64,000 bases of DNA from Ostreococcus lucimarinus (taxonomy: Eukaryota), in the NCBI GenBank assembly GCA_000092065.1, contig CP000590.1. The stretch is one strand, 5' to 3'. Below the pieces are notes generated by a model. It did no database searches. It was not told the DNA's origin and saw only the letters and a list, made by a program, of their open reading frames with translations. The translations under genes were made by a program, and so were the position numbers. Below are positions 1-14,324 of the stretch, piece after piece; the first letter of the stretch is position 1, and each line of letters opens with the position of its first letter.

Positions 1-2755
1 GAGCCTGAGGGCGCATAACGAGGAAGCGATCGCGAAATATGCAAACTTTCCGGAGTTGGATAAGCCGGACGCGCACGTGGCGCGAGATGCGGATGGGTAC
101 TACGTCGTGAAGGAGGAGTGGCGAAAACCGACGAATCCCTTTGAAAAGTTGAAGCTCGCGAAGGATCCGATGCGAGAGTTGATCGGGATGAACGGGATCG
201 AGGAGATGGCCAAGGCGAGCGCGGCGGATTTCAAGGCTTGGGACGAGGCGTTGAATGACCCGGACGAGACCGATCAACGACCGAAGTGGGCGGGTTTGTT
301 TCATCGACGCAAAGGACACTACGGGCGATACATGATGCGACTCAAGCTTCCGAACGGACTCATTAACTCGACGCAGATGCGATATTTGGCGAGCGTGATT
401 AAAAAGTACGGCGAAGATGGGTGCTGCGACATCACGACGAGACAAAACATTCAGCTTCGTGGGGTTGAGTTGAAGGATGCGCCCGAAATCTTGCGCAAAC
501 TCGAAGAGCTCGGTATGTGCTCGTTGCAAAGCGGGTTGGACAACGTGCGCAACGCGACGGGGAACCCGCTCGCGGGTTTTGATCCGCAAGAAATCGTCGA
601 CACGCGACCTTACACGCTCGCCATTCAAGATTACGTCACCGGTGGTGGGCGCGGGAATCCAGCCATCGCTAACTTGGGGCGTAAGTGGAACGTGTGCGTC
701 GTCGGCAGCAGCGACTTTTTCGAGCATCCGGACATCAACGACTTGGCCTTCATTCCAGCGATGAAGGATGGCAAGTTCGGATTCAACATGATCGTCGGTG
801 GCTTCATATCTTCTCAGCGCGCAGCGGAGTCGGTCTCTCTCGATGCGTGGATCCCTGAGAACGAGCTTGTCGCCGCGACGCACGCCGTGTTGACGACGTT
901 TCGCGATTACGGCCATCGCGGCAACCGCCAAAAGTGCCGCATGATGTGGCTCATCGACGAGATGGGTTTGGAAACGTTTCGCACCGAAGTTGCGTCGCGC
1001 ATGCCAACGGGAGACTTGGCGCGCGGCGCCGAAGTGGATCTCATCGACCGAGAGTCTCCGCGACGCAGTTACATCGGCGTGCACGCGCAAAAGCAAGAGG
1101 GCTTGAGCTGGGTCGCCGCTGCCGTGCCGGGCGGACGTATGCAACCGGAAGATCTCGCGGAGATGGCTGATCTCGCGGACAAGTACGGCGAAGGTGAGAT
1201 TCGACTCACCGTCGAGCAAAACTTTATCATTCCCCACGTGCCGAACGATAAGATTGACGCCATTCTCCAAGAGCGTTTGTTTCAAGAGTACACGCCGTTC
1301 CCGGGCAAACTTGTGTCCAACATGGTGGCGTGCACCGGAAATCAGTTCTGCGGATTCGCGCAAATCGAGACGAAGCGACAAGCGCTCGAAATGGCGGAAC
1401 ACTTGGAAAGTTGCTTAGAACTTTCGAAGGACGTGCGCATGATTTGGACAGGTTGCCCGAACTCTTGCGCTCCGGTGCAAGTGGCGGACATTGGCCTCAT
1501 GGGCGCGCAGGTGAAGAATCCGACGGGCGAGAAGGGCATGGTACCAGGGGTGAACATCTTCATCGGTGGTACCGTCGGGCCGAACGGCCACTTGAAGGAA
1601 GCGCCAGAAATCGCAAAGGTCCCGTGCTCAGAGTTGAAGCCGGTTCTGGAACAGATTATGATTGAGAGGTTTGGCGCGACGCGCAAGGCGACGCCGACGC
1701 CGAATCCGGGGCGAGCGTCGCGCTGGAAAATCAACAAATCTGCGCAGTATACCAAGGGTGTCCCTAAAGCCATGGGTAAGGCGACGCACATTTGCACCGG
1801 ATGTGGTTACATTTATCAAGAGACGAAGAAGTTCGACGAGTTGCCGGATGACTACGTCTGTCCGTCGTGCAGCGCGCCGAAGTCCAAGTTTGAAGCGATG
1901 AAGCAGGAAGAGACGCCCACGAGCGCTCGCCCGGTCGTGGAGTACCCCGAAGGCACGCTCGCGACGCTGAAGAACGGCGAAACCGTTGAATTGAAGCTCG
2001 TTGAGAAGGAACAAGTGACGTCGAACACTGTACGCCTTCGATTTGAACTCCCGTCGCCGGAGCACATCCTCGGACTTCCCGTCGGGCAACACGTGACGGT
2101 GACCATCGACGGCGTGTCTCGTCCGTACACTCCGATCACGCGCGATGCGGACAAGGGTTTCATGGACCTTCTCGTGAAGATTTATGATCAAGGCGCGCTC
2201 ACGCAAAAGCTCAACGCCGTGGCCGTGGGATCTACCGTAGCGTTCGAAGGACCGAATGGGTTGGTGACGTACAGCGCTCGCGGCGAATTTTCTACGCGCA
2301 ATCCGGCGACGGGCTCTGTGGCGAAGAAATCATGCAAGAACATCGCCATGATCGCCGGTGGTACTGGCATCACCCCTATGCTTCAAGTCATTCGCCAAAT
2401 CTTCAACGATGTCGGGGACACGACGCGGGTCAACTTGTTATTCGCCAACGTCTCCTCGGCGGATATTCTCTTGAAGAAGGAGCTCGACGAGCTCGCGAGC
2501 GCGCACAAAAACTTGACGGTGCACTACGCGATCGACAAGGATGAACCAAACTGGAACGGCGAGGTTGGATACGTTTCAGAGGAAATGATCAAGAAGTGCG
2601 ACTTGCTGAAGCGAGGTGGCTTGATGGACAAATTGTTTTCATCCGCCGACGACACCGCGGTCCTCGTGTGCGGCCCGCCGGCGATGGTTGAGAAAGCCGT
2701 TGTGCCCGCGTTGGACGCACTGAATGTCTCTACAGATTCTCGAATTTTCTTTTAA
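1..2755 (+). CDS. NII: Nitrite reductase (siroheme/4Fe-4S, plant Fd-NiR type) fused C-terminally to a rubredoxin and a cytochrome-b5-reductase-type FAD/NAD(P)H domain; 5' end lies outside the window
   Basis: The frame is open from nt 2 with no stop before the TTG used by the ORF track, so the N-terminus/transit peptide is left of the window. It matches plant NiR block by block (RPKWAGLFHRRKGHYGRYMMRLKLPNG, TTRQNIQLRG, QSGLDNVRN, GNRQKCRMMWLIDE, cluster cysteines CTGNQFCG and TGCPNSC). About nt 1780-1900 encode a rubredoxin knuckle pair (CTGCGYIY...YVCPSC). About nt 1960-2752 encode an FNR-like module (RPYTPIT, GGTGITPM, CGPPAM, C-terminal IFF). Confidence 0.93.
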   Translation, partial: SLRAHNEEAIAKYANFPELDKPDAHVARDADGYYVVKEEWRKPTNPFEKLKLAKDPMRELIGMNGIEEMAKASAADFKAWDEALNDPDETDQRPKWAGLFHRRKGHYGRYMMRLKLPNGLINSTQMRYLASVIKKYGEDGCCDITTRQNIQLRGVELKDAPEILRKLEELGMCSLQSGLDNVRNATGNPLAGFDPQEIVDTRPYTLAIQDYVTGGGRGNPAIANLGRKWNVCVVGSSDFFEHPDINDLAFIPAMKDGKFGFNMIVGGFISSQRAAESVSLDAWIPENELVAATHAVLTTFRDYGHRGNRQKCRMMWLIDEMGLETFRTEVASRMPTGDLARGAEVDLIDRESPRRSYIGVHAQKQEGLSWVAAAVPGGRMQPEDLAEMADLADKYGEGEIRLTVEQNFIIPHVPNDKIDAILQERLFQEYTPFPGKLVSNMVACTGNQFCGFAQIETKRQALEMAEHLESCLELSKDVRMIWTGCPNSCAPVQVADIGLMGAQVKNPTGEKGMVPGVNIFIGGTVGPNGHLKEAPEIAKVPCSELKPVLEQIMIERFGATRKATPTPNPGRASRWKINKSAQYTKGVPKAMGKATHICTGCGYIYQETKKFDELPDDYVCPSCSAPKSKFEAMKQEETPTSARPVVEYPEGTLATLKNGETVELKLVEKEQVTSNTVRLRFELPSPEHILGLPVGQHVTVTIDGVSRPYTPITRDADKGFMDLLVKIYDQGALTQKLNAVAVGSTVAFEGPNGLVTYSARGEFSTRNPATGSVAKKSCKNIAMIAGGTGITPMLQVIRQIFNDVGDTTRVNLLFANVSSADILLKKELDELASAHKNLTVHYAIDKDEPNWNGEVGYVSEEMIKKCDLLKRGGLMDKLFSSADDTAVLVCGPPAMVEKAVVPALDALNVSTDSRIFF

Positions 2756-3024: not shown

Positions 3025-3877
3025 TTACGCATATTGCGCTGCGGCGGCGTTTTGCTTCTTGTAATCGTACATCGTACCGGCAGTGGCGACGATGATAGAG
3101 AACGCGATGAAGAAGCTCATCGTGCCGACGAGCGCTTGCGGCAAGCGGTCGTAGGTGACGACTTCGAAGGTGCAAGAAGAATCGTCGCCGTATCGCACGT
3201 AGCCGCTGGAGTCCGATTCCAAGACTTGGATAAAGTACTTGGCCGGCGCGATGTTCAACGGGAGCGGGATGTCGACGTTACCAGTCGCCGACCCGCCCGT
3301 GATGCCCGCTTTGAGATAGTCGGCCTCGACCACGGTTTGCTTGCATCGCTTGTTCTTGTTGACGATGTCTTTCTTCTTGCGCCACGGCTTGGAGGCGAGT
3401 TCGGAGTCGTCGTAGCACAACTTCACCATCATCGTGTTCCCCGACGTCGTGGAAGCACCGGTCCACGCCACGTTGATGGAGTTCAAACCACCCTGCGCTT
3501 TCTACGAACGTGAAAAACAAATAATCAAGTCAGTCTTCGAATCACGAACGAAATCGCCAGCGTCGCCGCGCCCGACCCCCAAAGGACACTCGCGCCGGTC
3601 GAACGCTTATCCGCCCTCGCGTCGTCTCCGCCCGCGCGTCGTCCCCACGCCACCCACGCGTCCACTCGCGCGTCGAGCGCGCGCCCGAATGCGTTATTTC
3701 TCGCGCGGTCGCGCGCACACGCACCGAACCAGCCGCGCACGCCCCGCCGTCGATCGTCGTCGTCACGCCGAGCGTGTTCGACGACATCTCGCTGTACTTG
3801 GTGAACGCGTGCGCGCCGTCCGCGAGCATCGCCGTGGCGGCGAGACCACCGATCAAGAGCTTCTTCAATTCAACCAT
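3025..3877 (-). CDS. NAR2: NAR2/NRT3 high-affinity nitrate transporter accessory protein (2 exons: 3877-3725, 3501-3025)
   Basis: Exon 1 starts at ATG 3877 with a signal-peptide-like MVELKKLLIGGLAATAMLADGAHA. The phase-0 intron 3724-3502 has a GTGCGT donor, an ACTGAC branch and a TAG acceptor. Exon 2 carries the NAR2 core (INVAWTG, MMVKLCYDDSELASKPWRKKKD...NKRCKQTV, compare plant IKVKLCYAP..DRPWRK..DKTCP) and one C-terminal TM helix (MSFFIAFSIIVATAGTM). Confidence 0.85.
3502..3724 (-). other. Intron of NAR2
   Basis: On the minus strand: GTGCGTGTGCG donor, AGACTGAC branch, 25 nt, then TAG. Phase 0, joining ...GGACAAGS to KAQGGLNSINVAW. Confidence 0.75.
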
Positions 3878-4249: not shown

Positions 4250-5958
4250 ATGGCGATCACTAAAGAATTCAATGTCCCCGTGGACAGGTGCGTGTGGTTC
4301 GAGGCGCGCGCGAACGTGGGGGGGGGTTAAAGCGACGACGATGCGTCGCGGTTGTGTCGAAACGACGTGGTCGAATCGAGCGCGTGTGCGGTCGCGCGCG
4401 ATGGCGACGCGGCGCTCGAACGCGTCGATAACGATGAAAGATATATTTGTTTATGCTTTCATGCCCGCGAGACTGACGTGTAACGCGCGGTGCCGTCGTA
4501 CGTGGCCACAGCGAGCACAAGGCGATGAAGCTGAACGTCTTCAGCTTTGATCGCCCGCACCACTTGTCCTTCCACATGTCCTGGTTGGGTTTCTTCATCT
4601 CTTTCGTCTCGACGTTCGCGGCGGCGCCGATGATTCCGGTGATTCGTGAAGACTTGGGTCTCACGAAGCCGCAGCTCGGGAACGCTGGTTTGGCGGCGGT
4701 GACGGGTACTATTATTTGCCGCGTGCTGATGGGTACGGTGTGCGACCTCATCGGCCCGCGACTCGGTTTGTCGGTTATTCTTTTGGCCACCGCGCCCTTC
4801 TGCTTCGCCATGGCCATGGTGCAAGGCTTCGAAGGTTTCCTGATCTGCCGTTTGGGCATCGGTCTGGGTCTCGCCACGTTCGTGGCGTGCCAGTTCTGGA
4901 TGTCTTGCATGTTCAACAGCAAGTGCGTCGGTCTCGCCAACGCGACCGCCGCGGGCTGGGGTAACTTGGGCGGCGGAGTCACGCAATTCTTGATGCCGGG
5001 CATCTACGCCATCTGCTACTCGGCGACCAACAGCCGTGCGTTCACTGCCTGGCGTTGGGCGTACATCTTCCCGGGCATGTGCCACACCGTAGTCGGTTTG
5101 ATGGTCATGTACCTCGGCCAAGATTTGCCGGATGGTAACTACAAGGTGCTCACGACTTCGGGCGCGCTCGAAAAGAAGTCCTCCATGAAGGTCAACTTGA
5201 TCGGCATGAAGAACTACCGCATGTGGTGCATGGTCGCCACCTACGGTTTCTGCTTCGGCGTTGAACTCACGATGAACAACATCGTCGCCGGTTACCTCTT
5301 TGATCAATTCGGCGTCTCCCTCTCTGTCGCAGGCGTGTTGGCGTCTTGCTACGGTATGATGAACTTGTTCGCCCGCTCCGTGGGTGGCATCATCTCTGAC
5401 TGGTCTTCTAACCGCTTCGGTATGCGAGGACGTCTTTGGACTTTGTGGTCCACCCAAACGCTCGAAGGTGTGCTGTGCATCTTCATGGGTCTCTCCAAGG
5501 ACAACTTGGGCGCCACCATCGCGTTCATGGTGTTCTTCTCCATTTGCGTGCAGGCGTCCGAAGGCGCTTCTTACGGTATCGTGCCGTTCATCTCCCGCCG
5601 CGCTCTCGGTGTCGTCTCTGGTTTCATCGGTGCTGGCGGTAACGCTGGTGCCACCATCGCCACCGCCGCCTTCTTCACCAAGGATTCCATTGAGACGTAC
5701 GAAGGTCTCCAGTACCTCGGTTACACCGTCATCGGCGTCACCGCTTTGGTCATCCCGATTCACTTCCCAATGTGGGGCTCCATGTTCTTCCCGGCATCCA
5801 AAACGGCCACGGAAGAGGACTACTACATTCACAACGAGTTCACTCCGGAAGAAATCAAAGCTGGTCTCGCCGCTCCGGTCCAAAAGTTCTGCAACAACTC
5901 TCGCAACGAGCGCCCGGTTTGGAAGCGCGAGCAAGATGCGGTTGAAGCCTCCGCGTAA
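4250..5958 (+). CDS. NRT2: NRT2 high-affinity nitrate/nitrite transporter, MFS NNP family (2 exons: 4250-4287, 4512-5958)
   Basis: Exon 1 encodes MAITKEFNVPVD. The intron 4288-4511 has GTGCGT...ACTGAC(4472-4477)...CAG. Splicing restores the NRT2 N-terminal signature VPVDSEHKA. The body is a multi-TM MFS protein (FSFDRPHHLSFHMSWLGFFISF, GNAGLAAVTGTIICRVLMG, AGWGNLGGG). Confidence 0.95.
4288..4511 (+). other. Intron of NRT2
   Basis: GTGCGTGTGG donor, ACTGAC at 4472-4477, CACAG acceptor. Phase 2. The splice creates the conserved VDSEHKA. Confidence 0.92.
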
Positions 5959-6122: not shown

Positions 6123-7550
6123 CTATCGCTGCCCGCCTTCGGCGGACGGTCCCACTTCGAGTCTACGCTGCACCTCCATCAATATGTGCGTCCCGATCCC
6201 CGCGGCGAAACCAATCGCCGTACTCTTAGTCGCGATCGTCACCGCAGCGGTCACCATGACGAGATACTTCTGGTGCTGATGCCATCCGGGTTTCGTCTTC
6301 AAGCCCATGCCAATGAGCTCCAAACTCGACGAAAATAACATGACTCCTAATATAGTCTTCGGAAAGTGCTCCAAGAGCTTCGTTAATGAGCTCCCGAATA
6401 ATAAACCGAGGGCAAGCTTGCACAAGCCGAGGAACACGATCGATCCTCCGCCGCGAGCACCGAAAGCGTACTGAGCCGCTAAACCGCCAGCGCCGTGGCA
6501 CGACGGCATCGCGCCTACCCAACACCCGACGATATTCATCATCCCCACGCTCGTCGCCACTGAGCTCGGCGACGCGGGAAAATCAGGAAACAATTCTTTG
6601 CTCAGTGCACACACGGAGATCACTGAATTTAACGTCGTCAATGGAAGTTGCGGGACGCCGGCGTTTACGATGCCGCGCTTTGCCTCGGACCACGACGCGC
6701 TCAAAATCTTTGGCGTGGCTGGTCCAAACTTCAATCCGCTCAGCGCGCCATCTTTCGTCATGGCCATGGTGATACCGAGCACAACGAGAATAAGCGCCAT
6801 GGGAATGTAGTGACGCATGCGTTTCCGACGTTCGCCATCCGCCTCAAGTTCGCCTCGCTCGTCGCGAATTGCCGGATACTCGGGCGAGCACACATACATG
6901 ACCGCACACATGGCCACGATGGTGACCAGTAGGCCATCCGTGCCAAACATCCCTCGCACCACACTAGCATCGCTCGACGTGTACACCGCGAGTAAAAACC
7001 CTTTCCTGGCGAGCAACAATCCAAGTCCCACTTGCATGCCTTGCACAACCGCGAGCGGCGTCACTTTATTAAACGTGTCCATCAATCTCGTCGTTCCAAG
7101 CACCAACACGATGGAAGACACGAACAAACCGGCGACCATAATTTCGTTGACATTCAACGGCGACTCTCCCAACGCCACCGCCGCGATCGTCTTCATCGGC
7201 TGCACGGGCATGGGTATCTCGTACAGAAACGCCGTGAGCACGTTGTACAATCCCGTGAACACGATTGTCGTCCCCGCGTCCACGCCACACTCGATCGACA
7301 TCCCGACGAGCAGCGGTAAAAAAGTCCCGAGATCTCCAAGCGCGCCGCTCGCCTCTCGCCAACCGAACTCGCGCCAAAACTTTTCCGCGCGCGCGCCGAC
7401 GACCGCCGCCGTCCCGCCGACGCGCCCTCTCGTCGCGCGCAGCTCCGACGCCGTCGTCTCGCCGCGCTTCTCGCGCGCGCCCGCGTCCACGACGCGAGCG
7501 TCATCATCGTCGTCCGCGATGCGAATCTCGTACTCACCCGCGGACGTCAT
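6123..7550 (-). CDS. MOT1: MOT1-type molybdate transporter (SulP-related)
   Basis: A 475-codon ORF with ATG at 7550. Both MOT1-family signature blocks are present (PMPVQPMKTIAAVAL and GAMPSCHGAGGLAAQYAFGARGG), and the protein is hydrophobic and multi-TM throughout. Confidence 0.9.
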   Translation of the reverse strand: MTSAGEYEIRIADDDDDARVVDAGAREKRGETTASELRATRGRVGGTAAVVGARAEKFWREFGWREASGALGDLGTFLPLLVGMSIECGVDAGTTIVFTGLYNVLTAFLYEIPMPVQPMKTIAAVALGESPLNVNEIMVAGLFVSSIVLVLGTTRLMDTFNKVTPLAVVQGMQVGLGLLLARKGFLLAVYTSSDASVVRGMFGTDGLLVTIVAMCAVMYVCSPEYPAIRDERGELEADGERRKRMRHYIPMALILVVLGITMAMTKDGALSGLKFGPATPKILSASWSEAKRGIVNAGVPQLPLTTLNSVISVCALSKELFPDFPASPSSVATSVGMMNIVGCWVGAMPSCHGAGGLAAQYAFGARGGGSIVFLGLCKLALGLLFGSSLTKLLEHFPKTILGVMLFSSSLELIGMGLKTKPGWHQHQKYLVMVTAAVTIATKSTAIGFAAGIGTHILMEVQRRLEVGPSAEGGQR

Positions 7551-10070: not shown

Positions 10071-11447
10071 ATGCCCGCCGAAACCGAAACCGCGCGCAAG
10101 TACCACATCGTCGGCGACTACGCCACCGCGCTGAACCCTCGAAACGACGCGCGAAGCGTGGAAAAATACGCGCGACACTTGGTGCTGCGTCCCCACGGCG
10201 CGCGCATCCAACGCGCGCTGTGCGCCGCGCGCGTCCTCGTCGTCGGCTGCGGTGGCCTCGGGTGCCCGTGCGCGATATATCTCGCCGCCTCGGGCGTGGG
10301 AACGCTCGGATTGTGCGACGCGGACGCGGTGGAGCTGAGCAACTTGCATCGACAGGTGGGACACTCGACGGCGGCGACCGGGACGTCGAAGGCGAAGTCG
10401 TTGGCGGCGCGGTGCGAGGGATTGAACGATGGCGTTCGAGTCGTGGTGCGAGAAACGTTCGCGACGACGGAAAATGTGATGGAACTTGTGGCGGGGTACG
10501 ACTTGGTGTGCGATTGTAGCGATAATCCGAGGACGAGGTATTTGTTGTCGGACGCGTGCGCGAGCGCGGAGATTCCGCTCGTGAGCGCGGCGTGCGTGGG
10601 ATTTGAAGGGCAGCTCACGGTGCTGTGTGGCACGCGAGCGTGGAATGATGACGATGAATCGTTTGGGGAGTTTGCGCCCGCACCGTGTTATCGATGTTTG
10701 TTTCCGACGCCGCCGGCGTCGGGAGACGCCGGGACGTGCGGGGCGTCTGGCGTGCTCGGACCGCTGCCTGGCATCGTGGGTACTTTTCAAGCGCTCGAGG
10801 CCATGAAAACGCTGGCTGGGGTAGGGGAGTCCATGCGAGGAAAAATGTTAACGTTCGACGCGTTGAGCGCGAGACCGACGATGACGTTGAACATGCGGGA
10901 ACAGCGAGACGCCGCGTGCGCGTGTTGCTCGACGTTGACGTCTCACGACGGACGCTTCGACGTCGCGACGTACGATTACGACGCTTTCTTATCGTCGACG
11001 CCGTGTCCGATGCGCGGAAGAAAAGCGAGACGCGGTGGCGTTGATGTGAACGCGCCGCCGAAGTTTGGGGCGCGAGAAATGCCGGAGCGCGGCGGCGGCG
11101 GCTGGCGACGCGTGGATGCGAAAGCGGCGACGACGTACGTCAAAGATGAGGGCGTCACCGTAGTCGACGTGCGTCCCAAGCACATGTACGACGCAGCGCA
11201 CATACCTGGATCTATTTCGTTACCAATAGAAACGCTCGACGTCGAGACGTGGAACGGCGCCGTGGGCGCGGCGGTTGAAGGATACCGTCTGTGCTTCGTG
11301 TGCGCGGGAGGCAACAACAGCCAAAGAGCGGCGCAATGGTTCGTGGACGCGAAAGTCGCCACCGCTGCCCCGGCGAGCGTCGTCGACGTTTGTGGCGGTC
11401 TCGCCGCGATGCGCGACGCGGGCTACGACGTCCCGAGACTCGATTGA
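10071..11447 (+). CDS. CNX5: Molybdopterin-synthase adenylyltransferase/sulfurtransferase (MoeB-ThiF fold plus rhodanese; CNX5/MOCS3/UBA4)
   Basis: Nucleotide-binding VLVVGCGGLGCPCAIYLAASGVG, SNLHRQV, a zinc-type cysteine pair (PCYRCLFP), and a C-terminal rhodanese-like domain (VVDVRP...FVCAGGNNSQRAAQW). Confidence 0.9.
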   Translation: MPAETETARKYHIVGDYATALNPRNDARSVEKYARHLVLRPHGARIQRALCAARVLVVGCGGLGCPCAIYLAASGVGTLGLCDADAVELSNLHRQVGHSTAATGTSKAKSLAARCEGLNDGVRVVVRETFATTENVMELVAGYDLVCDCSDNPRTRYLLSDACASAEIPLVSAACVGFEGQLTVLCGTRAWNDDDESFGEFAPAPCYRCLFPTPPASGDAGTCGASGVLGPLPGIVGTFQALEAMKTLAGVGESMRGKMLTFDALSARPTMTLNMREQRDAACACCSTLTSHDGRFDVATYDYDAFLSSTPCPMRGRKARRGGVDVNAPPKFGAREMPERGGGGWRRVDAKAATTYVKDEGVTVVDVRPKHMYDAAHIPGSISLPIETLDVETWNGAVGAAVEGYRLCFVCAGGNNSQRAAQWFVDAKVATAAPASVVDVCGGLAAMRDAGYDVPRLD

Positions 11448-11655: not shown

Positions 11656-12339
11656 TCAGAACTTTGTAGTAATTCGAAAAGTCGCGGCGACGATCGCCCC
11701 ACCCACGATTCGCCGCCACCACCGTCCACGCCGCGGCTTCTCGCCCTTATCCGACGCGGCGTCGCGCGTCGAGAGCGCGACCTCCGCGACGACGTCCTCT
11801 TCCGACCGCCCCTGCGGGCATCCGTTCGCCTCGAGATATCGCAACACGCCCTCGCTCGCGCCGCCCGCGTACTTGACCCAAAAGTCTCTGTCTTTCGCCA
11901 ACCACGCCGGCACCGGCGACGCGCGCGTCGTCGTCTCGCGCTCCGTCTCCGCCTCCGTCTCCGCCTCCGCCTCCGCCTCCGCCTCCGCGTCGCCCTCGCG
12001 CGTCACCACCCCGATCTGAAAATCTCTCAGCTGCGTCCACGCCCGCGCGCTGTGAATCTCCTCGAACTCATCGCTCGCCTCTTTCCCGAGCGCCCGCGCG
12101 ATCGCCAGCGCCGTCGACACCTGCCCCGCGTTGTTGAATCCCGGGTGCGTCGTCGCGAACGCCGTGATGTCGAACACGCGCTCGCGCACCACGATCCATC
12201 CGTCCGCGAGGCGCGCGTGCGCCGCGACGTCCTCGCGCGTGTACTTTCGCCACCTCGCGCGCTCGTCGTCCGTCGGCGCGCGCCGGAGCGCGTCGACGAC
12301 GGCGAGGTCGACGGCGACGTCGCGCCCGGACGCGTGCAT
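11656..12339 (-). CDS. Stand-alone cytochrome b5-fold heme protein resembling the heme domain of nitrate reductase, with an acidic (E-A/E-T) repeat linker and an unknown C-terminal region
   Basis: From ATG 12339: YTREDVAAHARLADGWIVVRERVFDITAFATTHPGF...DEFEEIHSARAWTQLRDFQIGVV. Both heme-ligand histidines are present (HPG.. and ..IHS). The AIHS-like second motif and the layout (W-I-V-V-x-x-x-V-F-D-x-T-x-F) look like NR heme domains rather than the microsomal b5 motif VGHS. The inter-histidine loop is about 8 residues longer than usual. The 3' end is ambiguous (see finding on 11498-11722). Confidence 0.65.
   Translation of the reverse strand: MHASGRDVAVDLAVVDALRRAPTDDERARWRKYTREDVAAHARLADGWIVVRERVFDITAFATTHPGFNNAGQVSTALAIARALGKEASDEFEEIHSARAWTQLRDFQIGVVTREGDAEAEAEAEAETEAETERETTTRASPVPAWLAKDRDFWVKYAGGASEGVLRYLEANGCPQGRSEEDVVAEVALSTRDAASDKGEKPRRGRWWRRIVGGAIVAATFRITTKF
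11941..11987. repeat. GCCTCC/GTCTCC hexamer repeat (encodes the E-A/E-T acidic linker of the b5 protein on the minus strand)
   Basis: CTCCGTCTCCGCCTCCGTCTCCGCCTCCGCCTCCGCCTCCGCCTCCG; translated on the minus strand as AEAEAEAEAETEAETE. Confidence 0.9.
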
Positions 12340-12658
12340 CGTCGCGCCGTTCGAGCGCGGACGACCGGACGCGTCGTCGGCGGCGCGCGGACGCGCGGCC
12401 GCGCGCGCGCGGACGCGTCGCGCGTCGCGCGCGCGCGTCGCGCGTCGCGTCGTGGCGCGACGACGTCGACGGGCGCGAAGCGTCACTTTGGTAAAAAAGG
12501 AAAAAATGCGTATGGGCAAACAGTATGACGCTTCGGCGACGCTTGGAGATTCCGAAACGACTCGGTCGACGGCTGGCGTCGACGCGACGCGACGCGCACA
12601 ACGCGGCCCTCGCGCGGTCGACGCGGCGTCGCGAGACTCGAAGCGTCGTCGTCGAGTC
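12340..12658. promoter_or_regulatory. Shared divergent promoter region of the stand-alone b5 gene and NR
   Basis: 319 bp between ATG 12339 (minus strand) and ATG 12659 (plus strand). Mostly CG-rich, with one A-rich patch at about 12486-12520 (GGTAAAAAAGGAAAAAATGCGTATGGGCAAAC). Confidence 0.45.
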
Positions 12659-14324
12659 ATGGCGAACGCCGTCGTCGCGATCGTCGCCGCGGGCGCGGGC
12701 GCGTTCGCGGGCAAGCTGCTCGACGGGAAAAAGCGCGAGACGTCGCGAGGCGCGGACGACGCGGACGACGTCGACTTTAAGACGGACGCGAAGTCCAACG
12801 TCGATCACGCGGCGGCGGCGAAAAAGCATCAGTACCTGGCGCAGAAGTACCCGGAGGTGGACGAGCGAGACTTGAAGACGCCGGATAATTGGGTGAAGAG
12901 GCATCCGTGCGTGCGAGACGCGAGGCGACGCGAACGCGGGACGACGAGGACGCGGCGAACGACGACGGCGCGCGTGACTGACGGTGGTTTGCGTCGATCG
13001 TGGTGATAGGAATTTGATTCGTCTGACCGGGAAACACCCGTTTAACGTCGAGGCGTCGCTTCCGGAGTTGTATGATTACGGATTCATCTCGCCGGTGAAC
13101 TTGCACATCGTGCGGAATCACGGCGCGGTGCCGAAGTGCGATTGGGACACGCACAAGATTAACATTTGTGGCAACGTCCCGAAACCGTTCGAGATCGGTA
13201 TGGACGAGTTGGTGAAAATGCCGAGCGACACGTTCCCGTGCTTGGTGGTGTGCGCGGGGAACCGTCGGAAGGAACAAAACTTGGTCAAGTCGTCGATTGG
13301 GTTCTCGTGGGGGCCGTGCGCCATCGGAAACACGTACTGGACGGGCGTACCGCTGCGAGTGTTGCTCAACAGAGCGGGCATTCATAAGCCCGGTCCGGGT
13401 GCGCGATACGTGTGCTTGGCTGGTCCGCAAAACGAATTGCCGAAGGACTACCCCGATCAAGACGGTGGTCCGGGATCGTACGGCACATCCATCGACATGG
13501 AAACCGCGCTCGATCCGACGTGCGATGTCATTGTGGCGTACGAACAAAACGGTGCCAAGCTTCACCCAGACCATGGATTCCCAGTGCGGGTGATCATTCC
13601 CGGTTACATCGGTGGGCGCATGATAAAGTTTTTGAAGGAGATTAAAGTCACCGACAGAGAGTCAAACAACTTTTATCACTTCAACGATAACCGCGTGTTA
13701 CCGCCGCCAGTTGACGCTGAGCGCGCGACCGAGGAGGGATGGTGGTTCAAGCCCGAGTTCATCATCAACCAACTCAACATTAACGGTGCCATCGCGTACC
13801 CGGCGCCCGAAGAAGTCATTCCCAAGTCGCAAAAGACGTACGCCTTCAAAGGTTACGCCTACTCTGGCGGCGGTCGCAAGGTCATTCGCGCCGAGCTTTC
13901 CTTCGATCAAGGCTTGAGCTGGGAATTGAGTGATATTCACACTCGCGAAGAACCGCGATGGGCCGATTTCAGCTCCGGTGACAAGGCCAGGCACTGGTGC
14001 TGGTGCATGTGGACTCTCGAAGTGCCGATTGAGAAGCTCCTCGACAAAAAGTGCGTCGAAGTGTGCTTCCGCGCCGTCGATCAATCCATGAACAAAATGG
14101 ACGAGCGCCCGACGTGGAACGTCATGGGTATGTTGAACAACCCGTGGTACCGCGTCCGCATCCACCACACGCCCACGGGCGACGTTCGCGTGGAGCATCC
14201 GTGCATCGCCGGTCCGACCCCCGGCGGCTGGATGCAAAAGATGGCGGCTAAGGAACCCACCGGAGAACTTCTCTGGGGCTGGGGCGGCCAAGGCACGCCG
14301 GCCGCGCCCCCGAGAGAAGAATAA
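12659..14324 (+). CDS. NIA: Nitrate reductase, molybdopterin-binding and dimerisation domains only (2 exons: 12659-12906, 13010-14324); no heme or FAD domain in the ORF
   Basis: Exon 1 ends ...DERDLKTPDNWVKRHP. The phase-2 intron 12907-13009 has GTGCGTGCG...ACTGAC...ATAG. Exon 2 continues NLIRLTGKHPFNVE. NR-specific blocks are present (LVVCAGNRRKEQNLVKSSIGFSWG, GFPVRVIIPGYIGGRMIKFLKEI, NFYHFNDNRVLPPPVD, GYAYSGGGRKV, MGMLNNPWYRV, EHPCIAGPTPGGWMQKM). TAA lies at 14322-14324, followed by an AT-rich 3' region. An alternative start is ATG 12506. Confidence 0.9.
12907..13009 (+). other. Intron of nitrate reductase
   Basis: GTGCGTGCGAG donor, GTGACTGAC branch, GATAG acceptor. Phase 2, joining ...NWVKRHP to NLIRLTGKHPF (conserved NR motif). 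Confidence 0.9.

Follow-up and report, generated by a model that had tools for sequence, protein, structure and literature searches.

A nitrite reductase of Ostreococcus lucimarinus extended by a rubredoxin and a cytochrome b5 reductase-type domain, and its predicted NADH-fed electron path

Ferredoxin-dependent nitrite reductases (NiRs) of plants and cyanobacteria, such as the spinach (2AKJ) and tobacco (3B0G) enzymes, are built from NIR_SIR repeats with four cluster cysteines, and need free ferredoxin. In bacteria, fungi and some algae, NirB/NiiA instead uses pyridine nucleotide for the six-electron reduction of nitrite, carried out at a siroheme/[4Fe-4S] center; NirB carries an N-terminal pyridine-nucleotide-disulfide oxidoreductase fold and a BFD-type [2Fe-2S] domain. 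Eukaryotic nitrate reductase places a molybdenum cofactor, a cytochrome b5 domain and a cytochrome b5 reductase (b5R)-type module, which binds flavin adenine dinucleotide (FAD) and the reduced nicotinamide dinucleotide NADH, on one polypeptide, so that electrons pass from the flavin through a one-electron carrier to the metal center. A further arrangement, a NiR fused to reductase domains, is found in picoeukaryotic green algae, and the fusion was reportedly described as early as 2006, in the O. tauri genome study of Derelle et al. Here we describe the corresponding gene, NII1, at the left edge of a 64,000-nucleotide stretch of the Ostreococcus lucimarinus genome (assembly GCA_000092065.1, contig CP000590.1; hereafter the window). 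In Micromonas commoda the same fusion was named NIRFU (XP_002507511), was already proposed to combine ferredoxin and NAD(P)H supply, and was stated to be confined to four Mamiellophyceae (Cuvelier et al. 2017, PMC5344333).

The window gene has the same domain order as M. commoda NIRFU and O. tauri Nii and lies in the same nitrate-assimilation cluster. There is no structural difference between them; only the O. lucimarinus RefSeq record is shorter. By its sequence, we identify the gene as NII1, the O. lucimarinus orthologue of NIRFU/Nii and a member of the same gene family. The fusion is already known, and the functional hypothesis raised for this DNA by an earlier sequence-only reading (the first-pass annotation), namely a built-in NAD(P)H-to-FAD-to-rubredoxin chain that could free the enzyme from photosynthetic ferredoxin, is the same as the one published for the Micromonas orthologue.

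An open reading frame (ORF) scan showed one frame that is free of stops from window base 2 through position 2752 (917 codons), in line with the uninterrupted ORF, from NiR core into extension, described by the first-pass annotation. Residue numbers below are those of the 899-residue ORF. NII1 begins left of the window edge, with the presumed transit peptide and the first ~75 residues upstream. A database protein of 991 residues (P0001), identical over all 917 window codons, supplies the missing N-terminus, including an Arg/Ala/Thr-rich leader of about 70–75 residues; a transit peptide has been predicted for the Micromonas orthologues. Along the 559 residues shared with XP_001419920.1 of O. lucimarinus CCE9901, the translation likewise shows 100% identity. 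G+C content at third codon positions (GC3) was 0.68–0.72 in every domain except the short linker 2 (0.85). All of the motifs quoted earlier for the extension (CTGCGYIY, CPSCSAPK, RPYTPIT, GGTGITPM, CGPPAM and the C-terminal IFF) were located where they had been placed, and the span assigned to it, 1780–2755, runs from the start of the rubredoxin (residue 577, nucleotide 1784) to the stop codon. Hidden Markov model searches, proposed as a check, matched the NiR, rubredoxin and FAD/NAD modules in Pfam. Since Pfam domains, motif positions and GC3 all fit one frame, the fusion itself is confirmed as an observation, and it is far beyond chance (Table 1).

The N-terminal part is a ferredoxin-type NiR core. 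Pfam detected two NIR_SIR_ferr plus NIR_SIR repeats (E = 9.7e-43 for NIR_SIR_ferr and 4.9e-48 for NIR_SIR), phmmer aligned residues 10–544 with tobacco NiR 3b0g (E = 5e-203), and identity to the tobacco and spinach ferredoxin-nitrite reductases was 55%. In an AlphaFold 2 model built on 77 sequences (mean predicted local distance difference test score, pLDDT, 84; predicted template modeling score 0.66), the core superposed on 3b0g and 2akj with a template modeling (TM) score of 0.93. The cluster ligands C426, C432, C467 and C471 were invariant in 111/111 aligned fused and unfused NiRs. Plant NiRs stop about where linker 1 begins, whereas the window protein continues; among solved structures, none had the combined NiR-rubredoxin-b5R architecture.

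The continuation opens with the 32-residue linker 1, which is 97–100% identical among Ostreococcus clades and 78–88% identical to the Bathycoccus and Micromonas sequences. Its conservation within Mamiellales (78–100%) exceeds that of the NiR core and is the highest of any stretch of the protein; instead of a passive tether, the segment might serve for docking or as a hinge. The short rubredoxin that follows was matched by Pfam Rubredoxin (PF00301, residues 579–612, 27.0 bits with the threshold at 23), by RUBY_RBDX (PF21349, 27.3 bits against 26.5) and by phmmer to 1bq8/1brf (E about 3e-7 to 4e-7). It is shorter than classical 54-residue rubredoxins by about 11 loop residues and keeps the signature CxxCGYxY ... 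DDYVCPxC ... F, with the four cysteines invariant in 21/21 fused NiRs. The domain is 82–95% identical across Mamiellales genera. Linker 2 varies in length, with 16–85% identity between lineages. These comparisons indicate that the rubredoxin and linker 1 are under strong purifying selection, and the predicted metal of the rubredoxin is iron instead of zinc.

The remainder of the extension is a flavin reductase. Pfam assigned FAD_binding_6 to residues 646–739 (E = 8.8e-27) and NAD_binding_1 to residues 765–881 (E = 1.6e-28). In phmmer searches the tail matched pig and human NADH-cytochrome b5 reductase (E = 4e-58) better than the nitrate reductase FAD fragment 1CNF (E = 3e-38), whose FAD domain is homologous to that of the tail, and plant-type ferredoxin-NADP+ reductase (FNR) only at about 1e-6. 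Foldseek gave TM scores of 0.88–0.91 to CYB5R3, and the closest non-fused relatives in a large protein database were animal CYB5R3 proteins (41–46% identity). CYB5R3 (1NDH, 1UMK, 7W3O) shares with the tail RxYTxxS, GxGxxP, CGPPxM, the Asp239 equivalent and a C-terminal aromatic residue. The earlier description of an FNR-superfamily module ending in an aromatic residue, like b5 reductases and nitrate reductases, thus agrees with the profile, PDB and structure matches; judged by these matches, the module is specifically of the b5R type. CYB5R3 has an N-terminal membrane anchor in the place taken in the fused NiR by the rubredoxin, and the acceptor, free cytochrome b5 in the b5 reductase, would presumably be the enzyme’s own rubredoxin in the fusion.

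Two features of the tail bear on its donor and acceptor. Asp239 of b5R reportedly selects NADH over NADPH, as described by Marohnic et al. in 2003. The b5R motifs and the Asp column were conserved in 14/14 fused NiRs aligned with 12 animal b5 reductases, and because the column of the equivalent residue, D827, holds Asp throughout these fused NiRs, as it does in all 12 b5 reductases, NADH is the predicted donor, with a probable preference over NADPH. On the acceptor side, a nine-residue b5R loop (FKxxHPKFP) is missing from the Mamiellales tails and from one other fused lineage (window 2180–2200, residues ~708–716), whereas animal b5 reductases and Chlamydomonas-like fused NiRs have it. The GGKMSQ sequence of b5 reductases, which we take to be part of the b5-docking surface, reads QGALTQ in Mamiellales tails. 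Loop deletion and GGKMSQ change are both consistent with a switched redox partner.

We then compared the ferredoxin-docking surface. The residues of spinach NiR that dock ferredoxin are said to be K80, K83, W92, K100, R375, K436 and R556 (the work of Hirasawa et al. in 2009). They were placed on the alignment by the known numbering of the cluster cysteines. The mapping is supported by the columns reached, every one of them Trp or Lys/Arg and 88–100% conserved among 90 unfused NiRs. Four of the seven positions are kept in the window protein and the three lost are all basic, in a comparison whose top 120 matches were land plants. The non-Mamiellales fused group keeps K80 and lacks K83 and K436. 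With land plants as the unfused controls, a link between the loss of K80, K83 and K436 and the fusion is no more than suggestive.

The fusion is more widely distributed than had been stated. The window protein is 87–89% identical to those of other Ostreococcus clades (O. tauri, 88%, and O. mediterraneus), 68% to Bathycoccus and 65% to the group taken to be Micromonas. At 47–51% identity, tripartite proteins were found in Chlamydomonas sp. UWO241, an MMETSP transcript, EukProt models and several metagenome lineages. All tripartite homologues have CxxC...CxxC, RxYTP, GG(T/S)G(I/L/V)TP and the C-terminal Phe, and all but one (P0023, with CGPAPM) have CGPPxM. Judged by these homologues, the fusion occurs outside the Mamiellophyceae, beyond the range given in 2017. 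Among 1.84 billion representative proteins, every match combining rubredoxin and b5R was a NiR fusion or a NiR fragment. Other b5R fusions carry a cytochrome b5 or Rieske domain at the same N-terminal position; a one-electron carrier ahead of b5R is therefore a recurring design, and its rubredoxin version is specific to NiR. In a rough neighbor-joining tree without bootstraps, the fused tails formed one clade adjoining the b5 reductases, apart from the nitrate reductase FAD domains, of which only the two that passed the filter were included.

Taken together, we consider it somewhat probable that the NII1 polypeptide, comprising a presumed transit peptide, siroheme/[4Fe-4S] NiR, linker, rubredoxin and b5R-type domain, forms an internal NADH-fed electron chain. 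In this proposal, NADH would reduce the FAD, acting as a two-electron to one-electron converter; the FAD would pass electrons to the Fe(Cys)4 center of the rubredoxin, and the rubredoxin to the [4Fe-4S] cluster of the NiR, the siroheme and finally nitrite. Pyridine nucleotide could then support nitrite reduction alongside reduced ferredoxin or in its place. We infer the direction of electron flow, and the extent to which a ferredoxin route would remain, from the sequence. The one-polypeptide logic would be that of nitrate reductase, with the rubredoxin in the role that cytochrome b5 has there: nitrate reductase pairs a heme b5 carrier with the molybdenum cofactor, and the fused NiR would pair a rubredoxin with siroheme/[4Fe-4S]. 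The proposed overall reaction is the same as that of NirB/NiiA, but no NirB-type Pfam family matched the window NiR at E ≤ 0.01. Because none of the domains of NirB match and the flavoprotein part is unrelated, the window NiR stands outside the NirB family.

Several points weigh against an internal NADH-fed chain. The midpoint potentials of classical rubredoxins lie at around −100 to +50 mV, and those of spinach NiR at around −365 mV for the [4Fe-4S] cluster and −290 mV for the siroheme. The rubredoxin would be several hundred mV above the NiR cluster, and transfer would therefore be steeply uphill, needing a tuned rubredoxin or a tolerance for uphill transfer. The model confidence in linker 1 is low, with pLDDT of 45–58 at residues 551–570. 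With the equivalents of W92, K100, R375 and R556 kept, the chief donor might remain ferredoxin. Literature searches returned no biochemical characterization of any fused NiR, and the structure and function of NIRFU were stated to be unknown (PMC5344333). Published expression points the same way: in long-day cultures of O. tauri the NiR protein reaches its maximum at midday, and Micromonas NIRFU is upregulated within 1 h of a shift to high light (PMC5344333). The suggestion in the first-pass annotation that the chain serves for example in darkness is not backed by published expression, which in O. tauri (protein) and Micromonas peaks in light, when ferredoxin is plentiful; a dark-specific role is without support.

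One NII gene per Mamiellales genome has been reported (PMC2944026, PMC4620153), and for this reason the fused enzyme is taken to be the organism’s only assimilatory nitrite reductase. A more far-reaching form of the proposal can also be drawn. In it, the sole NiR of picoeukaryotes that rank among the most abundant in the ocean might be largely NADH-driven, with a partly eroded docking patch and a highly conserved linker that seats the rubredoxin at the former ferredoxin site, the fusion being an old chlorophyte invention lost repeatedly. Its presence in Mamiellophyceae and in a Chlamydomonadales lineage is the basis for regarding it as old. We regard this full version as doubtful.

Ferredoxin may alternatively remain the physiological donor, with the tail in an auxiliary role instead of as the principal source of electrons, such as keeping the siroheme reduced, rescuing enzyme bound by nitric oxide or hydroxylamine, dissipating excess electrons or serving regulation. 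This would agree with the four of seven docking positions kept, with NiR transcript and protein peaking in light and NIRFU rising in high light, and with typical rubredoxin potentials, which are too positive for efficient cluster reduction. It sits less well with a tail that is under strong purifying selection and keeps all the catalytic motifs of an NADH-FAD reductase, with a rubredoxin-b5R pair that occurs only on NiR, and with the loss in Mamiellales of the basic K80, K83 and K436 of the ferredoxin patch. We consider this explanation unlikely, and less so than those that follow.

A structural role for the rubredoxin-like segment, as a zinc ribbon, appears improbable. The b5R domain would in that case reduce an external acceptor, either the tail-anchored cytochrome b5-like protein or the molybdenum-domain-only (Mo-only) nitrate reductase-like protein encoded 9–11 kb downstream. 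Both genes, lying in the same cluster, would need a reductase, and the Pfam rubredoxin score is barely over threshold. The aromatic and knuckle signature is nevertheless close to that of true rubredoxins, and the Mamiellales b5R has both the altered GGKMSQ region and the nine-residue loop deletion. In addition, the NiR is probably a plastid protein, whereas a membrane anchor is present in each of the candidate partners.

The last alternative is that NII1 and “Cytb5R” are separate genes with separate products and that the fusion is an annotation artefact. Three records speak for it. A 2015 review drew the O. tauri cluster as NIA1-NII1-Cytb5R-NAR2, with Cytb5R separate and its link to nitrate metabolism unknown (Sanz-Luque et al. 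2015, PMC4620153); RefSeq XP_001419920.1 ends at residue 633; and the metagenome contig L001 (ERZ1283823 k141_536366), from a relative ~85% identical, has two gene calls at the NiR locus. Each has another explanation. The RefSeq model, flagged partial, ends in ...ERFGA exactly at the end of plant homology; it lacks the genome-encoded rubredoxin and flavin domains and is a homology-guided truncation, an annotation error. The split in L001 is due to a single Glu codon that reads TAG in frame (L001:4940–4960). It lies within the NiR core, 40 codons ahead of the junction, and may stem from a sequencing error or polymorphism or mark a pseudogene. Current O. tauri records are fused (CAL56050, Q010I2 and OUS43412 “Nii”, 986–990 residues), and the present locus numbering (NR 00920, NIR 00930, that is ostta10g00930, and NRT3 00940) leaves no gene between NIR and NRT3. 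Proteins derived from transcripts of relatives cover all domains (MMETSP “type:complete”, Tara “gene_type:complete”), as do 934-residue Ostreococcus UniRef entries taken to be MMETSP-derived. Such full-length proteins contradict a stop or splice that would separate the NiR core from its extension, and the window holds no stop there, homology being continuous in one frame. With these observations, separate genes are very improbable and close to refuted.

Two further sets of candidates were rejected in the course of these comparisons. A stand-alone rubredoxin-b5R gene (P0234, 368 residues) proved to have core and tail in the same frame on its contig, split by one TAG inside the NiR core. Four apparently unfused close relatives (P0020, P0026, P0027 and P0015) have C-termini that result from intron read-through or frameshift.

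The genes after NII1, from NAR2 to CNX5, follow the published order of the O. tauri nitrate cluster (PMC4620153). The Mo-only gene farther along has its first exon in the frame of ORF 12131–13006, a short intron at ~12905–12990 and a second exon corresponding to ORF 12984–14324. Cytochrome b5 and FAD/NADH domains are absent from it, and the next gene begins too close to leave space for them. Its product, hydrophobic at the N-terminus and with a C-terminal tail that is conserved (GELLWGWGG.G.PAAP), matched Pichia nitrate reductase 2bih (E = 3e-97) better than sulfite oxidase (E = 1e-61) and keeps 79 of the 86 columns invariant in canonical nitrate reductases. Homologues with 65–91% identity are all Mo-only (495–576 residues) and include a Pseudoscourfieldia “nitrate reductase” and a Pyramimonas transcript. 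Contig L001 carries a canonical NIA1 (molybdenum, dimerization, cytochrome b5 and FAD domains) directly upstream of NII1, and the Mo-only protein is just 48% identical to the canonical NIA1 of the close relative. Divergent from the Mo-only gene is a cytochrome b5 domain gene whose product ends in a hydrophobic stretch like that of tail-anchored b5 proteins; this product is a candidate redox partner of the Mo-only protein.

The presence in the window of a Mo-domain gene without cytochrome b5 and FAD domains suggested that a nitrate reductase had donated its reductase half to NiR. This idea was ruled out. The canonical NIA1 of L001 retains its cytochrome b5 and FAD domains directly upstream of NII1, the O. 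tauri cluster was published as NAR1-NIA1-NII1 (PMC4620153), and b5 reductases are closer relatives of the NiR tail than are the FAD domains of nitrate reductases.

Table 1 Coordinates of NII1 features, ferredoxin-docking positions and neighboring genes in the window. Docking positions are given as spinach residue and window equivalent.
Feature	Residues	Nucleotides	Strand	Basis or remark
Ferredoxin-type NiR core, siroheme + [4Fe-4S]		2..1687	+	Pfam, phmmer, AlphaFold 2; 5’ end cut by window edge
C-x5-C (CTGNQFC), first two Cys ligands of [4Fe-4S]/siroheme		1331..1351	+	alignment
GC-x3-C (GCPNSC), third and fourth Cys ligands of [4Fe-4S]/siroheme		1451..1468	+	alignment
Linker 1, ATPTPNPGRASRWKINKSAQYTKGVPKAMGKA, NiR core to rubredoxin	545-576	1688..1783	+	alignment
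Short rubredoxin	577-616	1784..1903	+	Pfam, phmmer; Cys knuckles CTGCG 1793-1807, CPSC 1859-1870
CTGCGYIY		1793-1816	+	motif
CPSCSAPK		1859-1882	+	motif
Linker 2, rubredoxin to flavin domain	617-643	1904..1984	+	alignment; variable
FAD-binding beta-barrel, cytochrome b5 reductase type	644-739	1985..2272	+	Pfam, phmmer, Foldseek
RPYTPIT		2120-2140	+	motif, FAD domain
NAD(H)-binding domain	760-899	2333..2752	+	Pfam, b5 reductase alignment
GGTGITPM		2357-2380	+	motif, NAD(H) domain
Asp827 (b5R Asp239 equivalent)	827	2534-2536	+	alignment
CGPPAM		2669-2686	+	motif, NAD(H) domain
C-terminal SRIFF, ends in Phe		2738-2752	+	motif
Stop codon TAA		2753-2755	+	first in NiR frame
Docking position K80	L66			lost
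Docking position K83	P69			lost
Docking position W92	W78			kept
Docking position K100	K86			kept
Docking position R375	R361			kept
Docking position K436	S421			lost; five positions ahead of first cluster Cys
Docking position R556	K544			kept
NAR2		3025-3486	-	
NRT2		4525-5958	+	
MOT1		6123-7550	-	
CNX2/MoaA		7843-9324	-	
CNX5/MoeB-rhodanese		10071-11447	+	
Cytochrome b5 domain gene		11656-12798	-	Pfam 2.9e-11; HPG...H ligands
Mo-only nitrate-reductase-like gene		~12660-14324	+	Oxidored_molyb + Mo-co_dimer

To the published account of this fusion, the present analysis adds the truncation of the RefSeq model, the origin of separate-gene calls in relatives as artefacts, a wider range of the fusion, the restriction of the rubredoxin-b5R pair to NiR, the replacement of three docking residues, the prediction of NADH instead of NADPH as donor and the difficulty posed by rubredoxin potentials. 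If the tail does feed electrons from NADH, Ostreococcus, Micromonas and Bathycoccus would assimilate nitrogen with a weaker tie to photosystem I and ferredoxin than plants do, with a bearing on how these major marine primary producers grow when light is low or shifts and when iron is limiting.

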